Made by a program: the position numbers and the translations under genes. From Camelus ferus (lineage: Eukaryota): 64,000 nt of DNA. Shown one piece after another: positions 40,160 to 64,000 of this stretch (within the stretch, counting starts at the first letter, position 1; the number at the start of each line of letters is the position of its first letter). The stretch lies in assembly GCF_009834535.1 (NCBI RefSeq), contig NC_045696.1:85314001-85378000 (forward strand). The letters run 5' to 3'. The notes under the pieces are model-generated. The model saw only the letters and a program-made list of their open reading frames with translations, was not told the origin of the DNA and made no database searches.

Positions 40160-40942
40160 ATTTTGTGAGACTGAGGTCTGAACCTGTGGAATCTGGTGCT
40201 CTCTTCAGGTAGACAGTGCCAGAATTGAGTTAAATTGTAGAGCATACAGCTCGTGTCACAAAATTGCTTGATGTGTATAAAACCCAACCATCTGGTCACA
40301 GAAGTATTCTGTTGTGAGTATCATAGGAGAAGTGAAAGAGAATTAATAAAACGGCAGAACTCAGGCCAACAGTTGCTTATTCTTATGCTTGTCCTTAGAG
40401 CGGTCAACAAACCTGACCTACCGGTTGCTACCCACAGCTCCAGGCCCACTGTTAAAACTAAAGCTATTGATCTTACTGTTTCTACTTTATTCCAGTAATC
40501 GAAAGTAATAATCAAGCTTGGTCTCTGAGTCATCCTCCAAGGAGAAGGTCATAGGACTGTAACCTTACAAAATAACCTGAATTACCAAGAAGACCACGCC
40601 TTGGGTGCTTATAAGATAAAGAGATGGTAAAAGTGACAACCACTAGCCTTTATAGACTTGGTCATCTGGAGACACCATGATGCCACTCTGAGTCTTATGA
40701 GAATGTTGATTGTTATCAATGCTTTGTTGTTTGAGCTATGGCCATATAATCACCCCACCCCATCCCCAAGCTGGGTTCACAGTTGTGAAGGCAACAGCCT
40801 GCTGTCAGTCCCCTTTGCCTGGCAAAGCAATAAAGCTGCCTCTTTTCTTCTAAGCTCCAAGACCTTGTCTCTGGGTTATTTGGCTCTTCAGGGACGGGGG
40901 CCAATCATTCGGCGACAGAAGCAAAGGAGTGTTTTTCCTTAA
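40160..40942 (+). mobile_element. MER21-like LTR 3' fragment, interrupted by the ERV1 solo LTR
   Basis: cctgtggaatctggtgctctcttcaggtagacagtgccagaattgag...tggtcacagaagtattctg matches the recalled MER21 3' half. The element resumes after 40921 (gtgtttttcct). Confidence 0.7.
40333..40917 (+). mobile_element. ERV1-type solo LTR (585 bp)
   Basis: Starts TGAAAG and ends ...GGCGACA. Flanked by a 4-bp TSD GAAG (40329-40332 and 40918-40921). TATA-like tataat at 40745 and AATAAA at 40829. Confidence 0.9.
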
Positions 40943-50330: not shown

Positions 50331-50854
50331 AGGAAATGGGAGATCAAATAGAAAGGCTTAGAATGGAAGCTTTCTTAGAGAAACAGTTAATCTAACAGAA
50401 AATTTGATAACTAGTTGTTTCCAAGGGGTAGTGAAAAGGAGAAGGGACAGAAGGAAGTAAAGCAAGAAAGATGAAAGGAAGCACAGGTTAAGGGAGGTTT
50501 TTTCTTTTTTTTAAACATTAAAAGTCCTTGAGAATATGTATGCTGAGATATATACATATTATTTATATATATACATATATTTATATAAAATGGAAGGTGA
50601 GTTTGAAGTTGAGATAATAGATGAGACAAGGTTTTCAGGAAACATAAGAGAATGAAATCACCTGTATAGGTAAATCTTTATTTTTGAAAGGTGGAGAGAA
50701 ATCATTTACTTAATGAGAAAAAACAGCGTAAGACTGATTAGAAATGCAAATAAACCTGCAGGCATGGGGCTGAGGAAGAAGGAAGAGGCTGCCTTTCCTC
50801 TCTGATATGAAATCACCAAGTCATCTCCGGAGGCGGGAGAAGGGAAAGAAGAGA

Positions 50855-51519
50855 TGATACAGGAAAAATGAATGTGGGGCATGAGAAGGGCCCTGTCCCA
50901 GGTCTCGGCTGAGTCCCTGGGACGCGCCCCGCCAAGTGTGGGTCCTTGGCTTCGCACAGGGAAGAATTCAAGAGCGAGCCACAGTTGAGTAAAGATAGAT
51001 TTATTTAGAGAGGTACATACTACATGGAGTGTAGGCTGTTCCAGAAGGTGAGAGAAAGGCCACGAGGTGTGTGGGTTGGGTGCTCAGGTTAAAGTAAAAG
51101 TAGATACACACTCCATAGACAGAGTGTGGGCGATCTCTGAACACAAGGAAGCAAGAGAGGTGGCCACAAGGTGTGGTGTTGCCAGTTTTTATGGGCTTGG
51201 AAGCTTCATTTGCTAACAAGTGGGAGGACCATTCTAAGTACCCTGGAGAAGAGGCTGGGATTCACAGGAATTGGGCCACCGTCCACTCTTTGACCTTTTG
51301 TGGTTAGCCTTGGAACTGTCATGGCGCCTGTGGGCATGTTATTTACCATGTTAATATATTACAATGGGCATATATTGATGCTCAAGGTCTACTGGAAGTC
51401 AAATCTCCCACCATCTTGAGCTTCAAGGTTTACTGGGAGTTGATTCTTCCACCATTCTGGTGTTAATTGCTGTGTCATTCTTTGAATGACTGTGCCCTGC
51501 CCCCTTCCCTCCTGTCTCA
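50855..51519 (-). mobile_element. MER41-like ERV1 solo LTR (665 bp)
   Basis: Terminal inverted repeats TGATACAGG / CCTGTCTCA. Near-perfect 4-bp TSD gaga/caga. AATAAA on the minus strand at 51000-51005. Minus strand carries the MER41 hallmark 'cccacaggcgccatgacagtt' plus internal tandem duplications. Confidence 0.82.
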
Positions 51520-53134
51520 CAGAGAACTCAGGGATAAAGGTAAGTTTGGGATAAACATTGAGAGGAATGAGAGATGTGTCCCTAGGTTTATGATGAAGTG
51601 TGTATGGCAAGAGTGAGAGCCAAATGAAGACCCAGAAGCTGAGTTTGAAGTAGAATCGACTCACGTGGTCCCCCTCAACCCCACCCCACTTGGCAGCTCT
51701 GGTGCTGTTGTGTTGGAGAGGAGCAACACAACACTGCCCGAGGGAAAATGGATTTATGCTTTTGGCCAGAGAATGATTAAGTGAGTTATTGTATAGCATC
51801 TTCTTTTAAGGATATAAGACAAGCTAGGAGAAGGCTGAAAGACAGGGAGAGAATACAGTGTTAAGGCTTGATCAGTTAGAGTAGACTTAATGGCAGTAGA
51901 GATCTGAAAGACAAGAAATGGTGTACACATACAGTTCTGAACTTTCAACTTTCAGGGATTCTGTACTCCGAGAGATAACAAGGTTAAATGTGTGGCATTA
52001 AGTTATGGTCAAGAAAAATGAAATTAGGGTAGTGTGTTGGGCATTATTCACATGTAGAACTTGATTTAGTTAGTGAAAAGACCAGGAGATCAGACATAAT
52101 GTACTTTTAGAGTGTAATTATCTATAGTGCAAGATGCACAGAATTAATTGTTGAGACACCACAGTTGGAGTCCTGGATCTCTAGAATTCAGTGTCTAAAA
52201 CTATACATTGTGTTCAATACTATCTGTCTTACCTGCTTACCTAGTCATTTTACTAATGATACTCTTTCTCTTGAGAATTAAATGCAGTAATGAGTGAGAT
52301 GTCTTATCTAACATGCAAAGTGTTAGTCAAACATTATGCTGTCCACTGGATGCATACTTAAAATTTAACATCATAGCAAGCATAATACAACAAATCAGAA
52401 ATGTCCAATGTGTGTTAAACTGAATTGAACCAATACTTGACAATGCCAGATATCTTTGCTCTTGTTTAAATGCAGTGTGATTAGCGAAAAAGAGGTAGTT
52501 CGCCTCAGATCATATGGCATTGATCAATGTTCTCCTTAGATAAACAAAAATAATTTGATGTAAATTACTATCTGTCTTTGTTTAGGAAATACAATTGAAT
52601 AGTCAGCAGGAAAACTAAATTGCATCTCTGTTTAAGTAATAAAACACAGCAGGATATGGCACTGTTACATTGAACACCCTGAAGTGAGTTAATGTGACTA
52701 TAATGTGGTTTCTTTAAACAAACCAATTACAGTGTGCACAGGTAATAAATTATTATCAGTATTAGTATATGAAGCTTAATCTTCCATTTCCTCTTTATAC
52801 ATTTATGAAAATTTAAGATGCATCACCATAAAATATAAATGTTGTTGTTTTACTGTTTTATAGTTCACCAAACTAGAAATGTTTTACTTCTCATTGGATT
52901 TTTAATTCTTTCATTCATGCGTTTATCCTTTCATTTAGTTATATAAAATTCTTACCAATTATGGTTATATGGGGATTTCAAATATGATATATGCTATAAA
53001 TGTGGTACATGTGTGTATTATGATTTTGTTCAGAATCAGATTGTAACCACATTAACCAGCTGGTGGGGGAGGGGGATTGTAATATGACAATAGCTTAGCA
53101 TGCTGCATCTTAATATTTAAAAGGAGGTGTTTTT

Positions 53135-53599
53135 TTTTTTTTAACATTTTTATTGATTTATAATCATTTTACAATGTTGTGTCAAATTCCAGTGTTCAGC
53201 ACAATTTTTCATTCATTCATGGACATATACACACTCATTGTCACATTTTTTTCTCTGTGAGTTATCATAACATTTTGTGTATATTTCCCTGTGCTATACA
53301 GTGTAGTCTATTCTACAATTTTGAAATCCCAGTCTATCCCTTCCCACCCTCCACCCCCCTGGCAACCACAAGTCTGTATTCTCTGTCTATGAGTCTATTT
53401 CTGTCCTGTATTTATGCTTTGTTTTTGTTTATTTGTTTGTTTGTTTGTTTTTGTTTTTTAGATTCCACATATGAGCGATCTCATATGGTATTTTTCTTTC
53501 TCCTTCTGGCTTACTTCACTTAGAATGACATTCTCCAGGAGCATCCATGTTGCTGCAAATGGCATTATGTTGTCAGTTTTTATGGCTGAGTAGTATTCC
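53135..53599 (-). mobile_element. Young 5'-truncated L1 (camelid-type 3' end)
   Basis: Poly-T followed by L1 3'UTR antisense text. Perfect 17-bp TSD taaaaggaggtgttttt at 53118-53134 and 53600-53616. Confidence 0.95.
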
Positions 53600-53839
53600 T
53601 AAAAGGAGGTGTTTTTGAGTATTTTATAATCTGATAGAGGGAAAACATATTCAGAACAATAACTCAACTGCCAGGAAAAAATGCTTTAAGCTCCACAGAG
53701 AGAGGGCTGGTGTGCCTAGGTTTATGGAGATATAGGGGAGGGAGAGTAAGTAATGGGTATCCCCCTTTAAATTATTTTTCAACAAAATAAAATAGAAGCA
53801 TCTTCATATAATCTTTCTAGAAATACTGAATACATAAGT

Positions 53840-58006: not shown

Positions 58007-58118
58007 CAGAGTTTCTCAACCCTGCACTGTATGCATTTTGGGCCCGATAATTATTTGTTATAGTAAACTGTCCTTTGCATGATGGATATTTAGTAACATC
58101 TCGGACATCTACCCACTA
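58007..58118 (+). mobile_element. MER20 5' fragment
   Basis: cagagtttctcaaccctgcactgtatgcattttgggcccgataattatttgtt...catctacccacta. Confidence 0.8.
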
Positions 58119-58129
58119 ATATATATTAA

Positions 58130-58645
58130 GTGGGACAAAAACACCTTATGAATCATAAAGGAAAAAAAAAATATCAAAAGTTGAATTTCACTAAGATTAA
58201 ACATATCTGGTCATCAAAAATCACTATTTAGAAAGTGAAAAAGCAAGCTACACATCAGGATAAGATATCTGCAATACATATATCCAACAATGGATTTGTA
58301 TTCAGCATATATAAAACCCTAAAGAAAAATAAAGATGGCTATACCAACAGAATAAAAAAATCTGCAAAAGTCTAGAATGTGCACTTCATGAAAGAACATA
58401 CCCAAATACCCATTCAGCATGACTACTTCAAACTAAAAAGCTTCTGCCCAGCAAAGAAAGCAATCAATAGAATAAAAAGATAAACTGAGCAGTAGGAGAA
58501 AATATTTGCAAATTATATATCTGATGAGTTAATATTCAGAATATATAAAGAACTTCTACAACTCAACAACAAAAGCACAAATAACCTGATTTAAAAATAA
58601 GCAAATGAATCAAATAGGCATTTTTCCAAGGAAGATATAGAAATG
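58130..58645 (+). mobile_element. Two adjacent L1 ORF2 3'-region fragments
   Basis: aagattaaacatatctggtcatcaaaa...gatatctgcaatacatatatcc and aaactaaaaagcttctgcccagcaaag...gaaaatatttgcaaattatatatctgat are homologous L1 segments. Confidence 0.8.
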
Positions 58646-58654
58646 AAGCATTCT

Positions 58655-58900
58655 ATTTGTCATTTATTCCCAGGACTCCATATTGTAAACCATACCGTCT
58701 TTCCATCATTTCTTTTTCAGAGTAACAAAGAAGCTTCATTGGTAGGAATCTCAAATACCCCCAAGGACTCTGCTTTTCTCTCACTAACTTCCTGTCTCCC
58801 TGGAACTGGTCAGTATAGTTTTCTGCCTAGTCCTTACACTCCAGTGAATCTGTGGCCCTATCTGGAAGCTGTATTTGGAAATGCTGTTGTGAAAAATGAA
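58655..58900 (+). pseudogene. pro: Retroviral aspartic protease remnant
   Basis: ORF 58643-59002 contains SNKEASLVGISNTP...YSFLPSPYTPVNL. This resembles the class I protease pattern 'V.VVGVSN.P...HSFLL.P..PVNLLGRD'. The catalytic DTGA is not preserved. Confidence 0.7.
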
Positions 58901-59397
58901 CCAGATGACCTTCTTTGGAAATCCCACAAGGAAATTAACTCTTGGTTTTATGATAGCATACTTTTATTCCTCACTCTGATGACTCTACTGTCAACATCTT
59001 AGAACTTGGATCTATTTCCAGTAGCCTCTTGGCTATAGACAGTTCATATCTAGAACATATTAAGGAGGCTGAACCCATAAAGTTCTCTGTCACTCTATCC
59101 ATGTGCTTACTGAAACTGGCCCGATGCATATCAATAGAAGAGGCTACTGAAGGCCTGTGGCTCATCACACCACACACCTCCAAAAAAGATTCAGAATCTC
59201 CTAGATTAGCCCTTGCCATACCTCTTCTGCTCATCAAAAGGGCAAATGGATGTGGCTACCTTGTTACTTCCCTGTAGGCCACACCCATATTACCACCCTG
59301 GTGTCAATCCCTGAGACAGCTAACTTTGCAGTGGCAGATCTATGTTCAGCATTTTTTAAAAGTATATCTTTCCAACCAAACTCATAGTATCTTTTTT

Positions 59398-59760
59398 TAA
59401 AAAACTGAAGTACAGTTGATTTGCAATGTTGTGTTAGTTTCAGGTGTACAGCAAGGTGATTCAAATATATACATATGTATATATACATTCTTTTGCAGAT
59501 TATTTTCCAATATTGATTATTATAAGATATTGACTATAGTTCCCTGTGCTATACAGTAAGCCCTTACTGTTTATCTATTTTATATATAGTAGTGTATATC
59601 TGTTAATCCCAAAGTGTTAATTTATTCCTCCTCCCCTCCTTTCCTCTTTGGTAACCGTAAATTTGTTTCCTATGTCTGTGAGTCTACTTCTGTTTTGTAA
59701 ATAAGTTCATTTGTATCAATTTTTTTAGATACCATATGATATTTGCCTTTCTCTGAATTT
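59398..59760 (-). mobile_element. 5'-truncated L1 3' end (cetartiodactyl-type) inserted into the proviral RT
   Basis: Typical L1 3'UTR antisense text (tgaagtacagttgatttgcaatgttgtgttagtttcaggtgtacagc...gttccctgtgctatacag). The 14-bp TSD atagtatctttttt lies at 59384-59397 and 59761-59774. Confidence 0.92.
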
Positions 59761-60499
59761 ATAGTATCTTTTTTGCATTTACTTAAGGAAATAAACAATA
59801 CACATGACTGTTATGTTCCACTGATGCAGAAGTGTCCTCCAATTTTTTGCAAATACTGAGCCAGGACTCTACTCTTACATATGGAGGTTCTCCTGCTGTG
59901 TTCTCCAGACAGAAAATCTTACAGAATTGATTTCGTTTGCTTAGGAAGCTTTTAAAGACAAACTCTGTTTTTTTTTTCATATGGAAGTGCATTTTCTAGG
60001 CCGTGACAATATACAGAATTGTAACGATATCCTCAAAAATTAGAAGCTATTTATCTGTCTGTAAACTTGGAGGAGCTCTTGGAGGATACTGTATATTAGA
60101 TTCCTAAATATCTAAAACTTAATACCCCTTTATACAATCTGAGAGAAGCTGACAAATGTGAGCCTTTGCTTGGACAGAAACACTAGAGATTGACTTTAGT
60201 AACATTATTTCCTTTAAAACCCCTTACCTTGTACTACCCAATAAACATAAAACTTTATGTCTAAGTGTATATTAAAATTCAGGACAAGCAATGAGGATCC
60301 TAACTAAATAGGACAGGAGAAATCAGAAACCATTCTTTATTATAACTTTTCACTTAATATTATAGCAAAAACTCACTCTTCTTTATGCAGAGTGGCCGCA
60401 GTTATATAGTTAACTGATCCTGTAGAGAAGTCTACTCAGGTTTTGGGACAATTCAAGTACGAAGCACTCATTCTGAAAAGCAGACAGAACAGAACAACT

Positions 60500-60500
<1 letters not shown>

Positions 60501-60550
<50 letters not shown>

Positions 60551-60566
60551 CACACACACACACACA
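60501..60566 (+). repeat. Compound microsatellite (CAA)16(CA)9 inside proviral pol
   Basis: Read directly from the sequence. Confidence 0.97.
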
Positions 60567-60664
60567 CTGGAATGAATTAAATTGTTTATTCCACCCAGAT
60601 GGTCTCTGGACACACTAAGATACCACATATAGACTCTTATGAAATATTGAGAGGAAGTTTCTCA

Positions 60665-61545
60665 AAAAATTTAACACATCATGTAAAAGAAAGAAAAATT
60701 CTTCTTAAATAGGTCTTATTTAGAAAACTTCAGAGGATGTTTCTAGTGCACACCCTATCTGTGAATGCCACAATCCTGAGAAAACTGTAAAGGCTAGTTG
60801 TGAATGTAAGCCAATCTCTTTAGGCTCTTTGAATATCTATAAATGAACTTAATTAAGCCTTATATGTCTATAGACATATTCTTACTTATTTTCTGCTTGC
60901 TTTCTGGTGAGCTAGAGACTTTTCTTGCCATAAAGCAGCTTCTCTGGTAGTAACAAAGCAACTTTCAGGCTTTGCATTTCCCTCTTGGGAAAACTCACAC
61001 CTTTGTCCAGTATTAGGGGTGCAGATTCCATTGGAACAGTAATTAAGATACTTCATAAGGCTCTGCCTATTGCTTAGAAGCTTCATTTTCACATTTCTCA
61101 GAGAAAACAGAATAAATTTTACACTAGACTTTCAAAACTACCTGAAGAACTTCAGTAGCTGTGGCCAAAGGTTTGCCCTTAGCTTTCATGGCCATTTCCC
61201 CATCCAACAGGAATACATACACTATCCTCATGGAGGCTCATGCATCTTGTGATCTCACCCTTATACTGACCCTCCTCTTTTACAGTAGGCTGATGTGGAC
61301 AAATTTTGTAAAGGTTTAATGCAAGCTTATTATCAACAGATCCAAGGTTTGTCTTCTTTCACAAATAAACTGCAGGAACCTCTGCCTGATCTTCAGTCTA
61401 GTTTACTTACTAGAAATGATGCCAGTTTAAGATTACTCTTGCATCTCATCGCAAGGAACATTATCAGGTACTATTGATCGTAAACACTTACATGCAATTT
61501 CAGGGAACTGACCCTTGGATTTGTGTATCCCAATTAAAAAAAAAT
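60665..61545 (+). pseudogene. pol: Retroviral integrase remnant (HHCC zinc finger, DDE core, GPY/F C-terminal module)
   Basis: 60671 LTHH; 60751 HPICECHNPEKTVK..GS/EYL*MNLI (cf. CQ.HNPGK..GPFEHLQMDFI); ~60894 CLLSGELETF/CHKA...FAFPSW (cf. FSGWVEAFPCRKA..FPTWG); 61003 LSSIRGADSIGTVIKILHKALP (cf. SSDRGTHFTG); 61162 WPK/LPLAFMAI; 61450-61542 RKEHYQVLLIVNTYMQFQGTDPWICVSQLKK (cf. WKGPYQVLLTT.TA.KLQG..PWIH.SQLK). Confidence 0.93.
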
Positions 61546-61699
61546 CATATATCTACCTCTTGAACTTTTTTGCAAAACTTCCCCAAAAGTTTCTTAGGAA
61601 ACTTGGGTCAAAAGCAGACTAGGCCTAGCCTCCACCTAAATCTTCCAATTGAGACACTTGAATGCAAGGAGCCAAAAACTACTACAACTTTTTCTCTTT

Positions 61700-63312
61700 C
61701 TCTTCCAAATGTTAATGGACTTATTTTCTCTCCCTTTCTGTTGGTTTAGGATTCTTGATTGCTAATATGAGCTTGGAAAAGTTTCCTCCCTAGTCTTGTT
61801 ACTCTGAGCACCAGAGATTAAACCTTGACATTTAAATTGCACTTGGCACCAATGAACTCATTTTCCAGCTAAATGCTTAATTAATCAAATTGCTGGATTT
61901 TTACCATTTTCCCTGGGAAACTGAATCTATGTACCAGACAATAATGTCACTTTTCTTTCACTATATGCTGATAACAAGATTTTAGGATGATTGATAACAA
62001 GAAAAATTAAAAGTGAAATACCCTAGACTGTCATTTCCCACAAATGTGTCACATGTTTATATCTAATAATGTAAGGTACCTGGGAAGCAACCTCTGCAAA
62101 GAGATCCAAAAAGAATTTCCTTCTCTTAACCTCTAATACCAAACTGGAACATTCACTGCTTTCTATAACCCCAAAACCTGCATTCCTAGTTACCCTACAG
62201 TTAGTAATATTGCTGCCTCTCCCTAACGTTATCATCATTTCAAGTATAGGAGATAAACAATTTTGACACATGCCTACAACCTCAGTCCCACCAAAGTTCT
62301 GTGTTTTATAAGGAACTACATGTTCCTGTGACAAGAGTGTTATGATTTTCATGCTTACAACCTCCTCAAATCTATGTAATGAATTTAAAAACTACTATTT
62401 ATTTGGAAACTTTAATTCCTGGAGATCATTCAAGAATGTGAATAAAACTATCTGAATAATACTTTTCAGTACCTAAGTAAGAACCCTGGATCACACTGAA
62501 TATTCCTGGATCTCTGGGACACAAGGTTGTCAGAGAATTCCTAATTGAACAGGTATTGGTATCTATTTCCATTCCCACCAGTTTTCTGGTTTAATATTCC
62601 TTTTAACTATACAAAAACTTCACTCTTCTTTCTCTTTTAAGTACTGAGCTCTTAATAACCTAGTCCCATGTAATAGTACATGATTATAAATTTTTAGGAG
62701 AATATTCACTGGAATTAGAAGAAAAACTTCTAATTTTTCTTAGACATAACAAACTATATCTACCAGTGAATCCTGAATTGCAGTCTTTTCGCCTAGTTGG
62801 ACAACCATGCAGAAAGCTCAAACATAGAATTTATTATGCCATAATTAAAACAACCATTAGTAACCAGTGAAACCTAAATAATAATTCCAAGAATTGGTAT
62901 ATATTCAACAAGCTGTAGTGCAATGTAGAAAGGCTTTAAATATATTCAGCATATAAATATGCACAGGGCAGTACACATGCTGACTTAGGGAAAGTAGAAT
63001 CTATCTATCTGCCAAGAGACATACTATATAATTTTTAACATAAACAGGAGGGTTAGGAAGGGTAATGAACAAATCAAAGGGAAAAAAAAGTGTTAAGTCA
63101 ACTTACTGATATCAAATATCTCTTCTTTATAGACCCAGAGTAGGAATGGGGTCTGTTCTCTTGGCTTAGTCAAGATTCTTGACTAAAACATCATTGTTCA
63201 AGGTGTTCTGATAATTCTAATGTTAATATTTGCTTTCTGCAGAATTGTTTGCCCTGTTCTCTCTAGAGTCTTAAATGCTTCTGCAGAGCAACTCACTAGC
63301 CAGATAATTTAA
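61700..63312 (+). pseudogene. env: Gamma-type envelope remnant (SU CxxC region, immunosuppressive domain, transmembrane anchor, cytoplasmic tail)
   Basis: 61876-61902 LN*SNCWIF (cf. NQSNCWIC). 62906-62947 QQAVVQCRKALNIF plus 62961-63014 AQGSTHADLGKVESIYLP (cf. AVLQNRMALDILTAAQGGTCA....ECCVYIP). 63147 WGLFSWL. 63190-63312 hydrophobic IIVQGVLIILMLIFAFCRIVCPVLSRVLNASAEQLTSQII*. The start position is approximate. Confidence 0.82.
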
Positions 63313-63472
63313 ATTCAACTACAAATACAAAAATCATAAGAAGCCCTAATGGCAGCCATCACTAATGAATCTGGGACTACAATCAAAGAGTGGTATTGAT
63401 CTAGAATTCTGAACAAATCTGTATGTGGTTAAATTATGAGATTCAGTCCCCCTCTTGAACAGGAGGCAGGAC

Positions 63473-63790
63473 TGTGAGGAACCCTGGAGATCTACAATTT
63501 TTTCACTTTGAACCTCGTAGGACACTAGCACCTCCTTTAATTCATCCCCATCCTTCACAGTAGTCCTCTTATGACTTTAACTTCCACACTGCTGAAGAAA
63601 TATTGTTCAAACAATTGCTGTTAAACCACAACAGCAGATTTTCCTTCTTCCAAGAAGTGATTTTGATGAATTTCTCTTCAAATTAGGTAAACTTTAGCTA
63701 TTCTCTCTTGCTTAAGCCCTACGAAACTTCATCCATCTTCTCCAGTTCAAAACTCTCCTTCAGAACAACACTCATATGACAGCATATTAT
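63473..63790 (+). mobile_element. Candidate 3' LTR of the fossil provirus (end uncertain)
   Basis: A purine-rich tract, ctcttgaacaggaggcaggac, is followed directly by TGTGAGG at 63473, about 160 nt after the env stop. This is where a PPT/U3 junction is expected. Confidence 0.5.
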
Positions 63791-63799
63791 AAGAAGGCT

Positions 63800-64000
63800 T
63801 ACAGTTTTTTGGTTTATTTTCCTCTATAGAAATAAGTCATATCTTTATAATATTGATCTTTCCAGTACTTGATCATGGTATATGCCTCTATTTAACTTCA
63901 GTCTGTGATTTTTCTTGAAAGAGTATTGCATTTTTCAGTTAGGATTCTATTATGTCTTTTGTTAGAACATTTCCTAAGTTTTTGTTTATGCTGTTGTAAA
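63800..64000 (-). mobile_element. Old L1 ORF2 fragment running off the window end
   Basis: catatctttataatattgatctttccagtacttgatcatggtatatgcctctattt. Confidence 0.65.

Follow-up and report, generated by a model that had tools for sequence, protein, structure and literature searches.

Towards the end of the 64,000-nucleotide stretch of Camelus ferus DNA analysed here (the window), an initial annotation had read a very old provirus from about 20 short motifs that the open reading frames do not reveal. What is this locus, how old is it, and is any part of it out of the ordinary? We found that a class I endogenous retrovirus (ERV) in an advanced state of decay occupies positions 58676–63828 of the plus strand. 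We are confident that it is the non-coding remnant of the 3′ part of a class I provirus. It likely belongs to the epsilon-like HEPSI/MER4 supergroup, likely entered the germ line 70–120 million years ago and has been decaying ever since. It is a new copy of an already known class of old ERV; it encodes no protein and is immobile.

Structure of the provirus

The features are collected in Table 1. Colinear homology to protease, RT and integrase is followed by the anchor and tail of env and then by a polypurine tract and the 3′ LTR; a later L1 insertion interrupts the provirus. The provirus has lost its 5′ LTR, gag, protease active site and RNase H, and its catalytic motifs have been destroyed. 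The earlier statement that pol and env are retained therefore stands for pieces of protease, RT, integrase and the env anchor and tail, and falls for RNase H, the protease active site and the catalytic motifs.

Table 1 Positions of the provirus, its parts and the adjoining repeats in the window
Feature	Position	Strand	Basis or remark
Old L1 ORF2 fragment(s), flank	58116–58645	+	adjoins provirus where 5′ LTR, gag and protease active site are expected
Protease remnant, C-terminal part only	58676–58900	+	P0016 from residue 1 = RVP profile 27–100
Protease motif	58742–58852	+	
RT 5′ part, ends after DLCSAFF motif	58901–59397	+	P0016 block 1, 121 vs 38 ± 5
RT motifs	59337–59357, 59878–59907, 59987–60007, 60084–60135	+	
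Nested L1 3′-end insertion	59398–59774	-	14-bp target-site duplication, 59384–59397 and 59761–59774
RT 3′ part and connection domain, YxDD destroyed	59775–60436	+	P0016 block 2, 116 vs 35 ± 4
RNase H deletion junction, with (AAC)n/(AC)n microsatellite at 60493–60566	60437–60573	.	comparison with C12
Integrase remnant, decayed HHCC, core, putative GPY/F-type C-terminus	60574–61565	+	P0016 block 3, 120 vs 37 ± 4
Integrase motifs	60674–61521	+	
Likely env start, common to env-deleted paralogues	61721–61823	+	68% match to C25 (E 3e-9), weak match to C3
Likely env middle, CWI motif, ISD/CX6CC relic at 62915–63014	61824–63065	+	lacking in all three subfamily paralogues
Env membrane-proximal region, anchor, cytoplasmic tail	63066–63333	+	protein scores; DNA matches to C3, C12, C25
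Env motifs	61885–61899, 62915–62981, 63190–63240	+	
Polypurine tract	63457–63472	+	directly 5′ of the TG opening the LTR
3′ LTR, ~355 bases	63473–63828	+	matches to C3, C12, L098, L144
Old L1 ORF2 fragment, flank	63826–64000	-	runs on to ~64128

The reference for pol was the opossum Gag-Pol A0A5F8HBR7 (P0016; Pfam domains RVP, RVT_1, RNase_H, rve and MLVIN_C), which had been found through a paralogue, L075, and not through the window. Frameshift-aware local alignment, the kind of search that the initial annotation had proposed, gave three colinear blocks with 30–34% identity, 16 frameshifts and 13 stops (scores 116–121): residues 1–254 at 58676–59396, residues 297–508 at 59866–60436 and residues 846–1125 at 60712–61542. 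These lie far above the controls, thirty shuffles per block (means 35–38, maximum 52) and the reverse strand (34–35). P0016 is the closest intact named protein found for protease, RT and integrase; unlike the locus, it is intact and comes from a marsupial, and in the integrase tree it falls outside the subgroup of the window. The alignment includes the MLVIN_C part of P0016, a domain that the candidate orthologue P0001 (see below) matches below the cut-off. The aligned pol blocks leave no room for a dUTPase, though part of pol is deleted. At the DNA level, protease/RT matches paralogue L098 (58% at 58688–59157) and integrase matches L054/L055 and L095 (62–64%).

Single frames were silent: no retroviral Pfam match was obtained with six whole frames or with eight short pieces of the window, a PDB search with one RT frame gave no match, and a homologue search with one integrase frame returned 0 of 269 candidates. 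The open reading frame track thus does miss the provirus, as had been claimed, and the motifs do follow one another in retroviral order on the plus strand, from the protease through to the last env motif. An Rfam search of the window gave no signal. The sequence words of the locus were present at 99–100% in 14 sequencing runs from two organisms, nine of which were marked as possible sources. CpG observed/expected is ~0.06 in protease-RT, integrase and env against 0.19 in the flanks, which favours the reading given above; the RT 3′ block (0.23) is flank-like and speaks against it.

The nested L1 with its duplication and the microsatellite proved to be as first described. The closest copies of this L1 are 86% identical (out of 11,366 candidates, 40 were scored). 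At the RNase H junction, ~160 bases of the window stand opposite ~840 of paralogue C12, which keeps RNase H, indicating a deletion of ~750 bases. The 5′ flank, which we take to be L1 from its translation and its motifs, matches L1 pieces at other loci (66–72%).

Downstream of the polypurine tract, the sequence aligns to both LTRs, 5′ as well as 3′, of the related copies C3 and C12 (scores 72–85; reverse-strand controls 24–33), and also to L098 and L144. Because it aligns to 5′ LTRs, it is itself an LTR; the tract directly before it confirms the reading of a polypurine-like run followed by TG, and the provirus extends beyond 63790, where it had been thought to end. No match to a second LTR or to gag was found in the window and 20 kb downstream, and the locus thus lacks the two LTRs, PBS, gag and target-site duplication of a complete provirus. 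Since C3 and C12 have LTR pairs, we read the missing 5′ LTR as a later deletion. Solo LTRs at ~40330–40920 and ~50850–51520 were ruled out as the missing partner, since their matches are to other families rather than to the 3′ LTR.

Classification

Assignment to class I is supported by the order protease, RT, (RNase H), integrase, from which RNase H was lost by deletion, by the polypurine tract preceding the LTR, and by a Pol that lies nearer to the gamma/epsilon ERVs than to the beta or spuma-like ones in trees and in the matches of L075. The best matches of this paralogue are RVT_1 and MLV-type RT structures; it matches the RT of MLV/XMRV at 1e-21 and that of foamy virus at 1e-11. Eighteen related decayed loci were met in the analysis. 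In the integrase tree, the window groups with C3 and C12 (support 94) within 14 decayed loci (98) that exclude the gamma-like, beta-like and ERV-L copies of the same genome; the rows were anchored on P0016, with neither named HEPSI nor WDSV sequences, and decay itself can draw sequences together. The RT phylogeny that had been called for was poorly resolved.

The HEPSI supergroup comprises HEPSI1–4, PRIMA4, MER89, MER34, MER65, MER4 and HERV24 (Vargiu 2016, PMC4724089). Within the first 400 letters of each of the 63 Pol entries of that supplement, a CSAF motif occurs in three (HEPSI3, HEPSI4 and MER89), all of this supergroup; the marker is drawn from the table and is not those authors' own criterion. 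The locus carries a CSAF-type motif at 59337–59357. It also shares high LTR divergence with the supergroup, its putative GPY/F-type integrase end would be a further common trait, its protease and RT layout is by eye similar to that of the HEPSI1/3 entries, and its putative ISD relic resembles the HEPSI2b/PRIMA4 type. These motifs likely point to the HEPSI/MER4 supergroup, and the motif and layout favour the earlier view of an epsilon-like rather than an MLV-like element. Four motifs had zero matches in the first 400 letters per sequence of the Vargiu supplements, which at that length weighs little. The locus differs from the supergroup in its non-human host and in lacking gag, PBS and RNase H. 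HEPSI/MER4-group internals are already curated in Repbase. By eye the LTR is unlike the printed chain starts of HEPSI1–4, MER89, MER34 and HERV24. The LTR may resemble MER110. MER110-int/MER110 is listed as unclassified ERV1 (PMC5753468).

Envelope region

The env anchor and tail match four of six related proviruses (scores 62–66 vs 29 ± 4), which bears out the hydrophobic anchor first noticed. The ISD relic and the SNCWI motif reported with it are present in the expected order and rise weakly above chance; 15 of 39 residues of the relic are identical to the TM of L094, and 4 of 300 shuffles score as high. Against gamma-type env, then, anchor and tail are significant, the ISD is weak and SU is not significant. 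Some 1.25 kb of the region, lacking in three subfamily copies, is kept here. This middle part of env is only weakly shown to be env and found no significant homologue among the references tried; for it the claimed retention of env was overstated. Cheap-gap alignments left the env deletion junction unpinned. The provirus is an ordinary genomic fossil apart from this ~1.25 kb of likely env, missing in its three closest own-genome relatives.

Age

LTR pairs of related copies differ by K2P 0.30 and 0.52, corresponding to ~68–117 My on short alignments (~210 sites) of paralogues and one assumed rate. This indirectly supports the very old insertion proposed at the outset; LTR dating can overshoot, as stated in the dating remarks of PMC9604959. 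Such ages are already documented for old insertions common to a mammalian order or to placentals, namely ARTenvV/CARenvV (PMC9604959) and an ERV-L orthologue (PMC3758187). The former keep an env ORF and Prima41/MER66-like parts, unlike our locus, which has no ORF; the latter is class III.

Candidate orthologues and alternative explanations

The insertion is likely common to several placental orders. Unnamed proteins of other datasets (P0001–P0015) look like candidate orthologues: they are 53–68% identical in amino acids to the window, against 36–48% for the best paralogues over comparable lengths, and in a simulation such values correspond to ~75–83% DNA identity, compared with the 58–64% at which paralogues match one another. 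Of 66 private residues, P0004 has six in common with the window and no more than one with any of the 10 paralogues; these include changes at motifs that the paralogues conserve. It is nonetheless possible, though we favour the shared insertion, that the insertion is specific to the host lineage and that these proteins derive from other subfamily copies rather than from the orthologous site. They were chosen for their likeness to the window and their flanks are unseen; P0015 scores 32.2 bits with the window and 32.1 with a paralogue in the own-genome search and shares 4 of 116 private residues with the window versus up to 3; and P0012 scores 138 with L095 versus 110 with the window. DNA of the candidates was not found in the metagenome and viral contigs scanned, and P0002 compared with Atlas gave a best value of 0.85 and no family. 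A shared deletion towards the end of integrase has different sizes in the window and in P0015 and was for that reason dropped as an orthology marker. When integrase and env were searched as DNA against the own genome, they matched only the locus itself; these searches miss known 62% paralogues and so do not show rarity.

The env middle could instead be unrelated DNA inserted later into a provirus env-deleted like its paralogues, which we consider improbable. Its env homology is not significant: the best score in 180 frames of 30 TLV_coat loci was 54 (shuffles up to 57), no SU/ISD match was significant in 54 frames of 18 paralogues, 375 natural frames gave no significant homology, an ISD profile from 26 blocks gave no significant match, and 61824–63065 had no match among ~140 loci or in own-genome searches. 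The piece nevertheless restores a normal env length (~540 codons, by established gamma-type sizes), carries its CWI motif near the left end and the ISD-like relic near the right end as expected, shares the skew and CpG depletion of the provirus, and matches no L1 or LTR repeats in ~735 kb of loci. Retention of env here and its loss in paralogues might also suggest co-option, with env turned into a host gene or the LTR into a promoter that works in reproductive tissue, and three reproductive-system RNA runs contain 57–95% of the words of the locus, a figure that neither shows nor excludes transcription. We regard co-option as highly improbable. From 59277 to the LTR the plus strand holds no open frame of 100 codons; the contigs of run X15 are flat and unspliced and overrun the searched stretch by 1,150 bases, as pre-mRNA or DNA would; and the sole LTR sits downstream. 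On the frames and the X15 contigs, the locus shows neither the long conserved env ORF nor the transcript of a co-opted gene of the syncytin, HEMO or ARTenvV type. Coverage holes in runs X16 and X17 prove nothing. There is no sign of function or of an own transcript.

Proposed history and implications

Returning to the shared, env-bearing provirus, a retrovirus with env would have integrated, and its subfamily would have spread further mainly in an env-deleted form, which would explain the absence of one and the same 1.25 kb from three paralogues. This copy may then have been methylated and drifted, deletions would have taken its 5′ third and RNase H, and the L1 would have inserted at least ~35 million years ago. 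A bolder reading, which we hold to be rather unlikely, is that, in an epsilon-like subfamily otherwise spread as an env-deleted element, this copy alone bears env and predates the split of the host lineage from other mammals; its 1.2-kb env middle would then be absent from curated repeat libraries and represent an undescribed Cretaceous envelope with an ISD type unlike that of neighbouring HEPSI-like families.

A single dead provirus matters little, mammalian genomes holding many such fossils. If the orthologues hold, the locus would give a dated record of epsilon-like retroviruses in early placental mammals and, for phylogeny, a presence/absence character. Should the 1.25-kb piece be env, the subfamily would have begun enveloped and amplified after env loss, in line with the env-less superspreader idea as cited in PMC6112702.

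Detection of the pol remnant

Single frames of the window gave no retroviral match in Pfam, PDB or a protein homologue search, and the search was therefore made through related copies in the same genome (a 2.09-Gb assembly; the window is 85314001-85378000). From these copies one frame of locus L075 led to four named opossum Gag-Pol proteins, which were compared with the window by frameshift-aware local alignment. The initial annotation had described a provirus hidden from an ORF-type view; frame-by-frame searches indeed show nothing retroviral, and the motifs it named all lie on the + strand in the order it gave. The frameshift-aware protein search that it advised produced three colinear blocks with P0016 (opossum Gag-Pol A0A5F8HBR7), corresponding to RVP, RVT_1/connection and rve/MLVIN_C. 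The blocks score 121, 116 and 120 (shuffle means 35-38, 30 shuffles each, maximum 52; reverse strand 34-35). Identity is 30-34%, and 16 frameshifts and 13 stops fall within the three. A second opossum protein, P0017, itself without integrase, supports both RT blocks (106, 102); P0018 and P0019 score 56-75. The provirus is not an assembly artefact, since 14 sequencing runs from two organisms contain 99-100% of the words sampled from 60570-63790; nine of these runs are flagged as possible sources of the window DNA. L075/L076 (contig C16, ~44.45-44.46 Mb) is a HEPSI-like provirus that has decayed less and belongs to another subfamily; its immunosuppressive domain (ISD) is of another type (DNRIALD-like) than the candidate ISD of the window.

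The P0016 alignment begins 3′ of the protease active site, which is absent; an L1 ORF2 fragment ends directly before the protease remnant. P0016 residues 509-845 correspond to 276 window bases only, and the RNase H region measures ~160 bases, as against ~840 in C12, a subfamily paralogue that keeps RNase H. The catalytic motifs of RT and integrase are destroyed, and the + strand 3′ of 59277 contains no 100-codon frame. Of the proposed pro-pol-env series, pieces of RVP, RVT_1 and rve and the env anchor and tail survive, while RNase H and the protease active site are lost. Neither a second LTR nor a match to the 5′ parts of three paralogues was found in the window and 20 kb downstream. Because the L1 ORF2 fragments on either flank are oppositely oriented, a simple split of a single L1 by the provirus does not account for them.

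The purine tract is followed by 355 bases that align, with scores of 72-85, to each of the two LTRs in the subfamily paralogues C3 and C12 (reverse strand 24-33; for the C25 comparison, shuffles 39 ± 6). The LTRs of six other related proviruses tested did not match (25-47). The window LTR may resemble MER110.

Features of the window and its provirus remnant (L numbers are loci of the same genome)
Feature	Position	Strand	Remarks
Second solo LTR	40330-40920		81% identity to L069/L101 copy, 75% to L110
Solo LTR, younger ERV1 family	50850-51520		78-83% identity with the LTRs of L092, L042, L078, L038; unrelated to provirus 3′ LTR
Young-looking L1 3′ end	53118-53616	-	17-base target-site duplication; L1 type would suggest a camelid host
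Upstream L1 ORF2 fragment	58116-58645		Appears tandemly duplicated
Provirus remnant	58676-63828	+	3′ part with one LTR
C3 and C25 match breaks off	61801-61823
Candidate ISD	62888-63014		15/39 identities to L094 TM
C3 and C25 match restarts	63066-63071
C12 match restarts	63085
Env anchor and tail	63190-63333
End of 3′ LTR	~63828		Same end as C12 5′ LTR
Downstream L1 ORF2 fragment	63826-64000

Classification and age

The integrase tree (30 rows; three loci with <130 aligned residues dropped) and the RT tree, their rows anchored on P0016, contain no named HEPSI (epsilon-like ERV) sequence; in the former, the window, C3 and C12 group at 94, nested in 14 decayed loci at 98. Gamma-like, beta-like and ERV-L copies fall outside these 14, which P0016 joins at 60 only. 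The RT phylogeny proposed in the initial annotation (20 rows, 14 dropped) recovered a window/C3 pair at 70 and left the rest unresolved. Within the first 400 letters per entry, 3 of 63 Pol entries have CSAF, and these three belong to the HEPSI supergroup, whose LTRs diverge by 13-31% and whose ISDs are of two types (Vargiu 2016, PMC4724089). Of six motifs screened, the 30 top-scoring rve loci of this genome carry none, in contrast to three loci found with the window, which do. Many HEPSI internals are curated, and MER110-int is listed as an unclassified ERV1 (Kojima 2018, PMC5753468). No description of this locus was found in the portions covered of the literature on MER110/MER110-int, camelid ERVs and epsilon-like orthologues. 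A camelid TE survey counts two-LTR ERV1 elements (1,142-2,455 per genome; PMC8605555), and would skip a one-LTR copy such as this. The remnant is genuine and comes from an old, now dead HEPSI-like provirus, of a kind already known.

The supergroup is common in this genome: 14 or more other decayed loci are HEPSI-like (for example L056, L058, L077, L079, L083, L097, L099, L100, L101 and L105), with LTR-pair K2P of 0.25-0.48 where measured. Three identical env + integrase matches at 5,648-base spacing (L107-L109; contig C17, 36.276-36.291 Mb) are either a tandem array of proviruses or an artefact of the assembly.

LTR-pair K2P is 0.30 for C12 and 0.52 for C3 (~210 sites); these correspond to 68 and 117 My under a rate of 2.22e-9 per site per year, which is from PMC9604959, according to which LTR dates may overshoot the true age. 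The nested L1 is 86% identical to its closest copies (40 of 11,366 candidates scored), which by hand arithmetic would give a rough minimum of ~35 My. CpG is strongly depleted in most provirus parts.

Candidate orthologues and RNA

One window frame searched against 1.84 billion proteins returned three short unnamed proteins, whose clusters, with one more relative, amount to 15 sequences in assemblies of Logan and ENA. These are junk ORFs across the same decayed integrase. Chosen by likeness to the window and known from protein sequences alone, without flanks, they share 53-68% identity with it (best paralogues 36-48%), equivalent in simulation to ~75-83% DNA identity. For P0004 the window is the top match in the genome, with six private residues in common; P0015 gives a less clear picture, and for P0012 the score with C12 exceeds that with the window. 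On this comparison the 15 are probably orthologous to the window locus. Insertions of comparable age are already on record (PMC3758187; PMC9604959).

Three RNA runs contain contigs over the 3′ part, with no splice joints. In run X15 depth is flat and one contig extends ~1,150 bases past the examined stretch into the downstream flank (L002:1-1150). This fits pre-mRNA or DNA carry-over rather than a proviral transcript, and the surrounding region may be intronic.

The env region

The env anchor and tail score 62-66 against four of six related proviruses, in which the matched segment stands 3′ of visible ISD relics, and 47 and 38 against the other two (shuffles 29 ± 4, maximum 45). Comparisons of the env middle with 30 TLV_coat loci (180 frames), 54 paralogue frames, an ISD profile and 375 natural frames yielded no significant match. 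The candidate ISD was placed by a targeted comparison with the L094 TM, a query picked after looking; 4 of 300 shuffles scored equally high and a chance match elsewhere in 84 kb scored higher. Retention of env, as originally claimed, is borne out for the anchor and tail; the ISD relic is weak, SU has no significant match, and the support for the middle part as env is weak.

The window LTR and env tail are common to C3, C12 and C25. Their matches leave out ~1.25 kb that the window copy keeps, the piece being absent from all three subfamily copies found; the spacing in C12 is compatible with the same loss as in C3 and C25. No further copy of the piece was found by searches of the genome with it, which are insensitive at this divergence. 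The rival account is a later unrelated insertion of the piece. A bolder reading, in which the subfamily is env-less apart from the window locus and that locus is deeply orthologous, appears unlikely. The shared absence of the piece makes it likely that an env-deleted form amplified, and that the window locus is nearer the enveloped ancestor.
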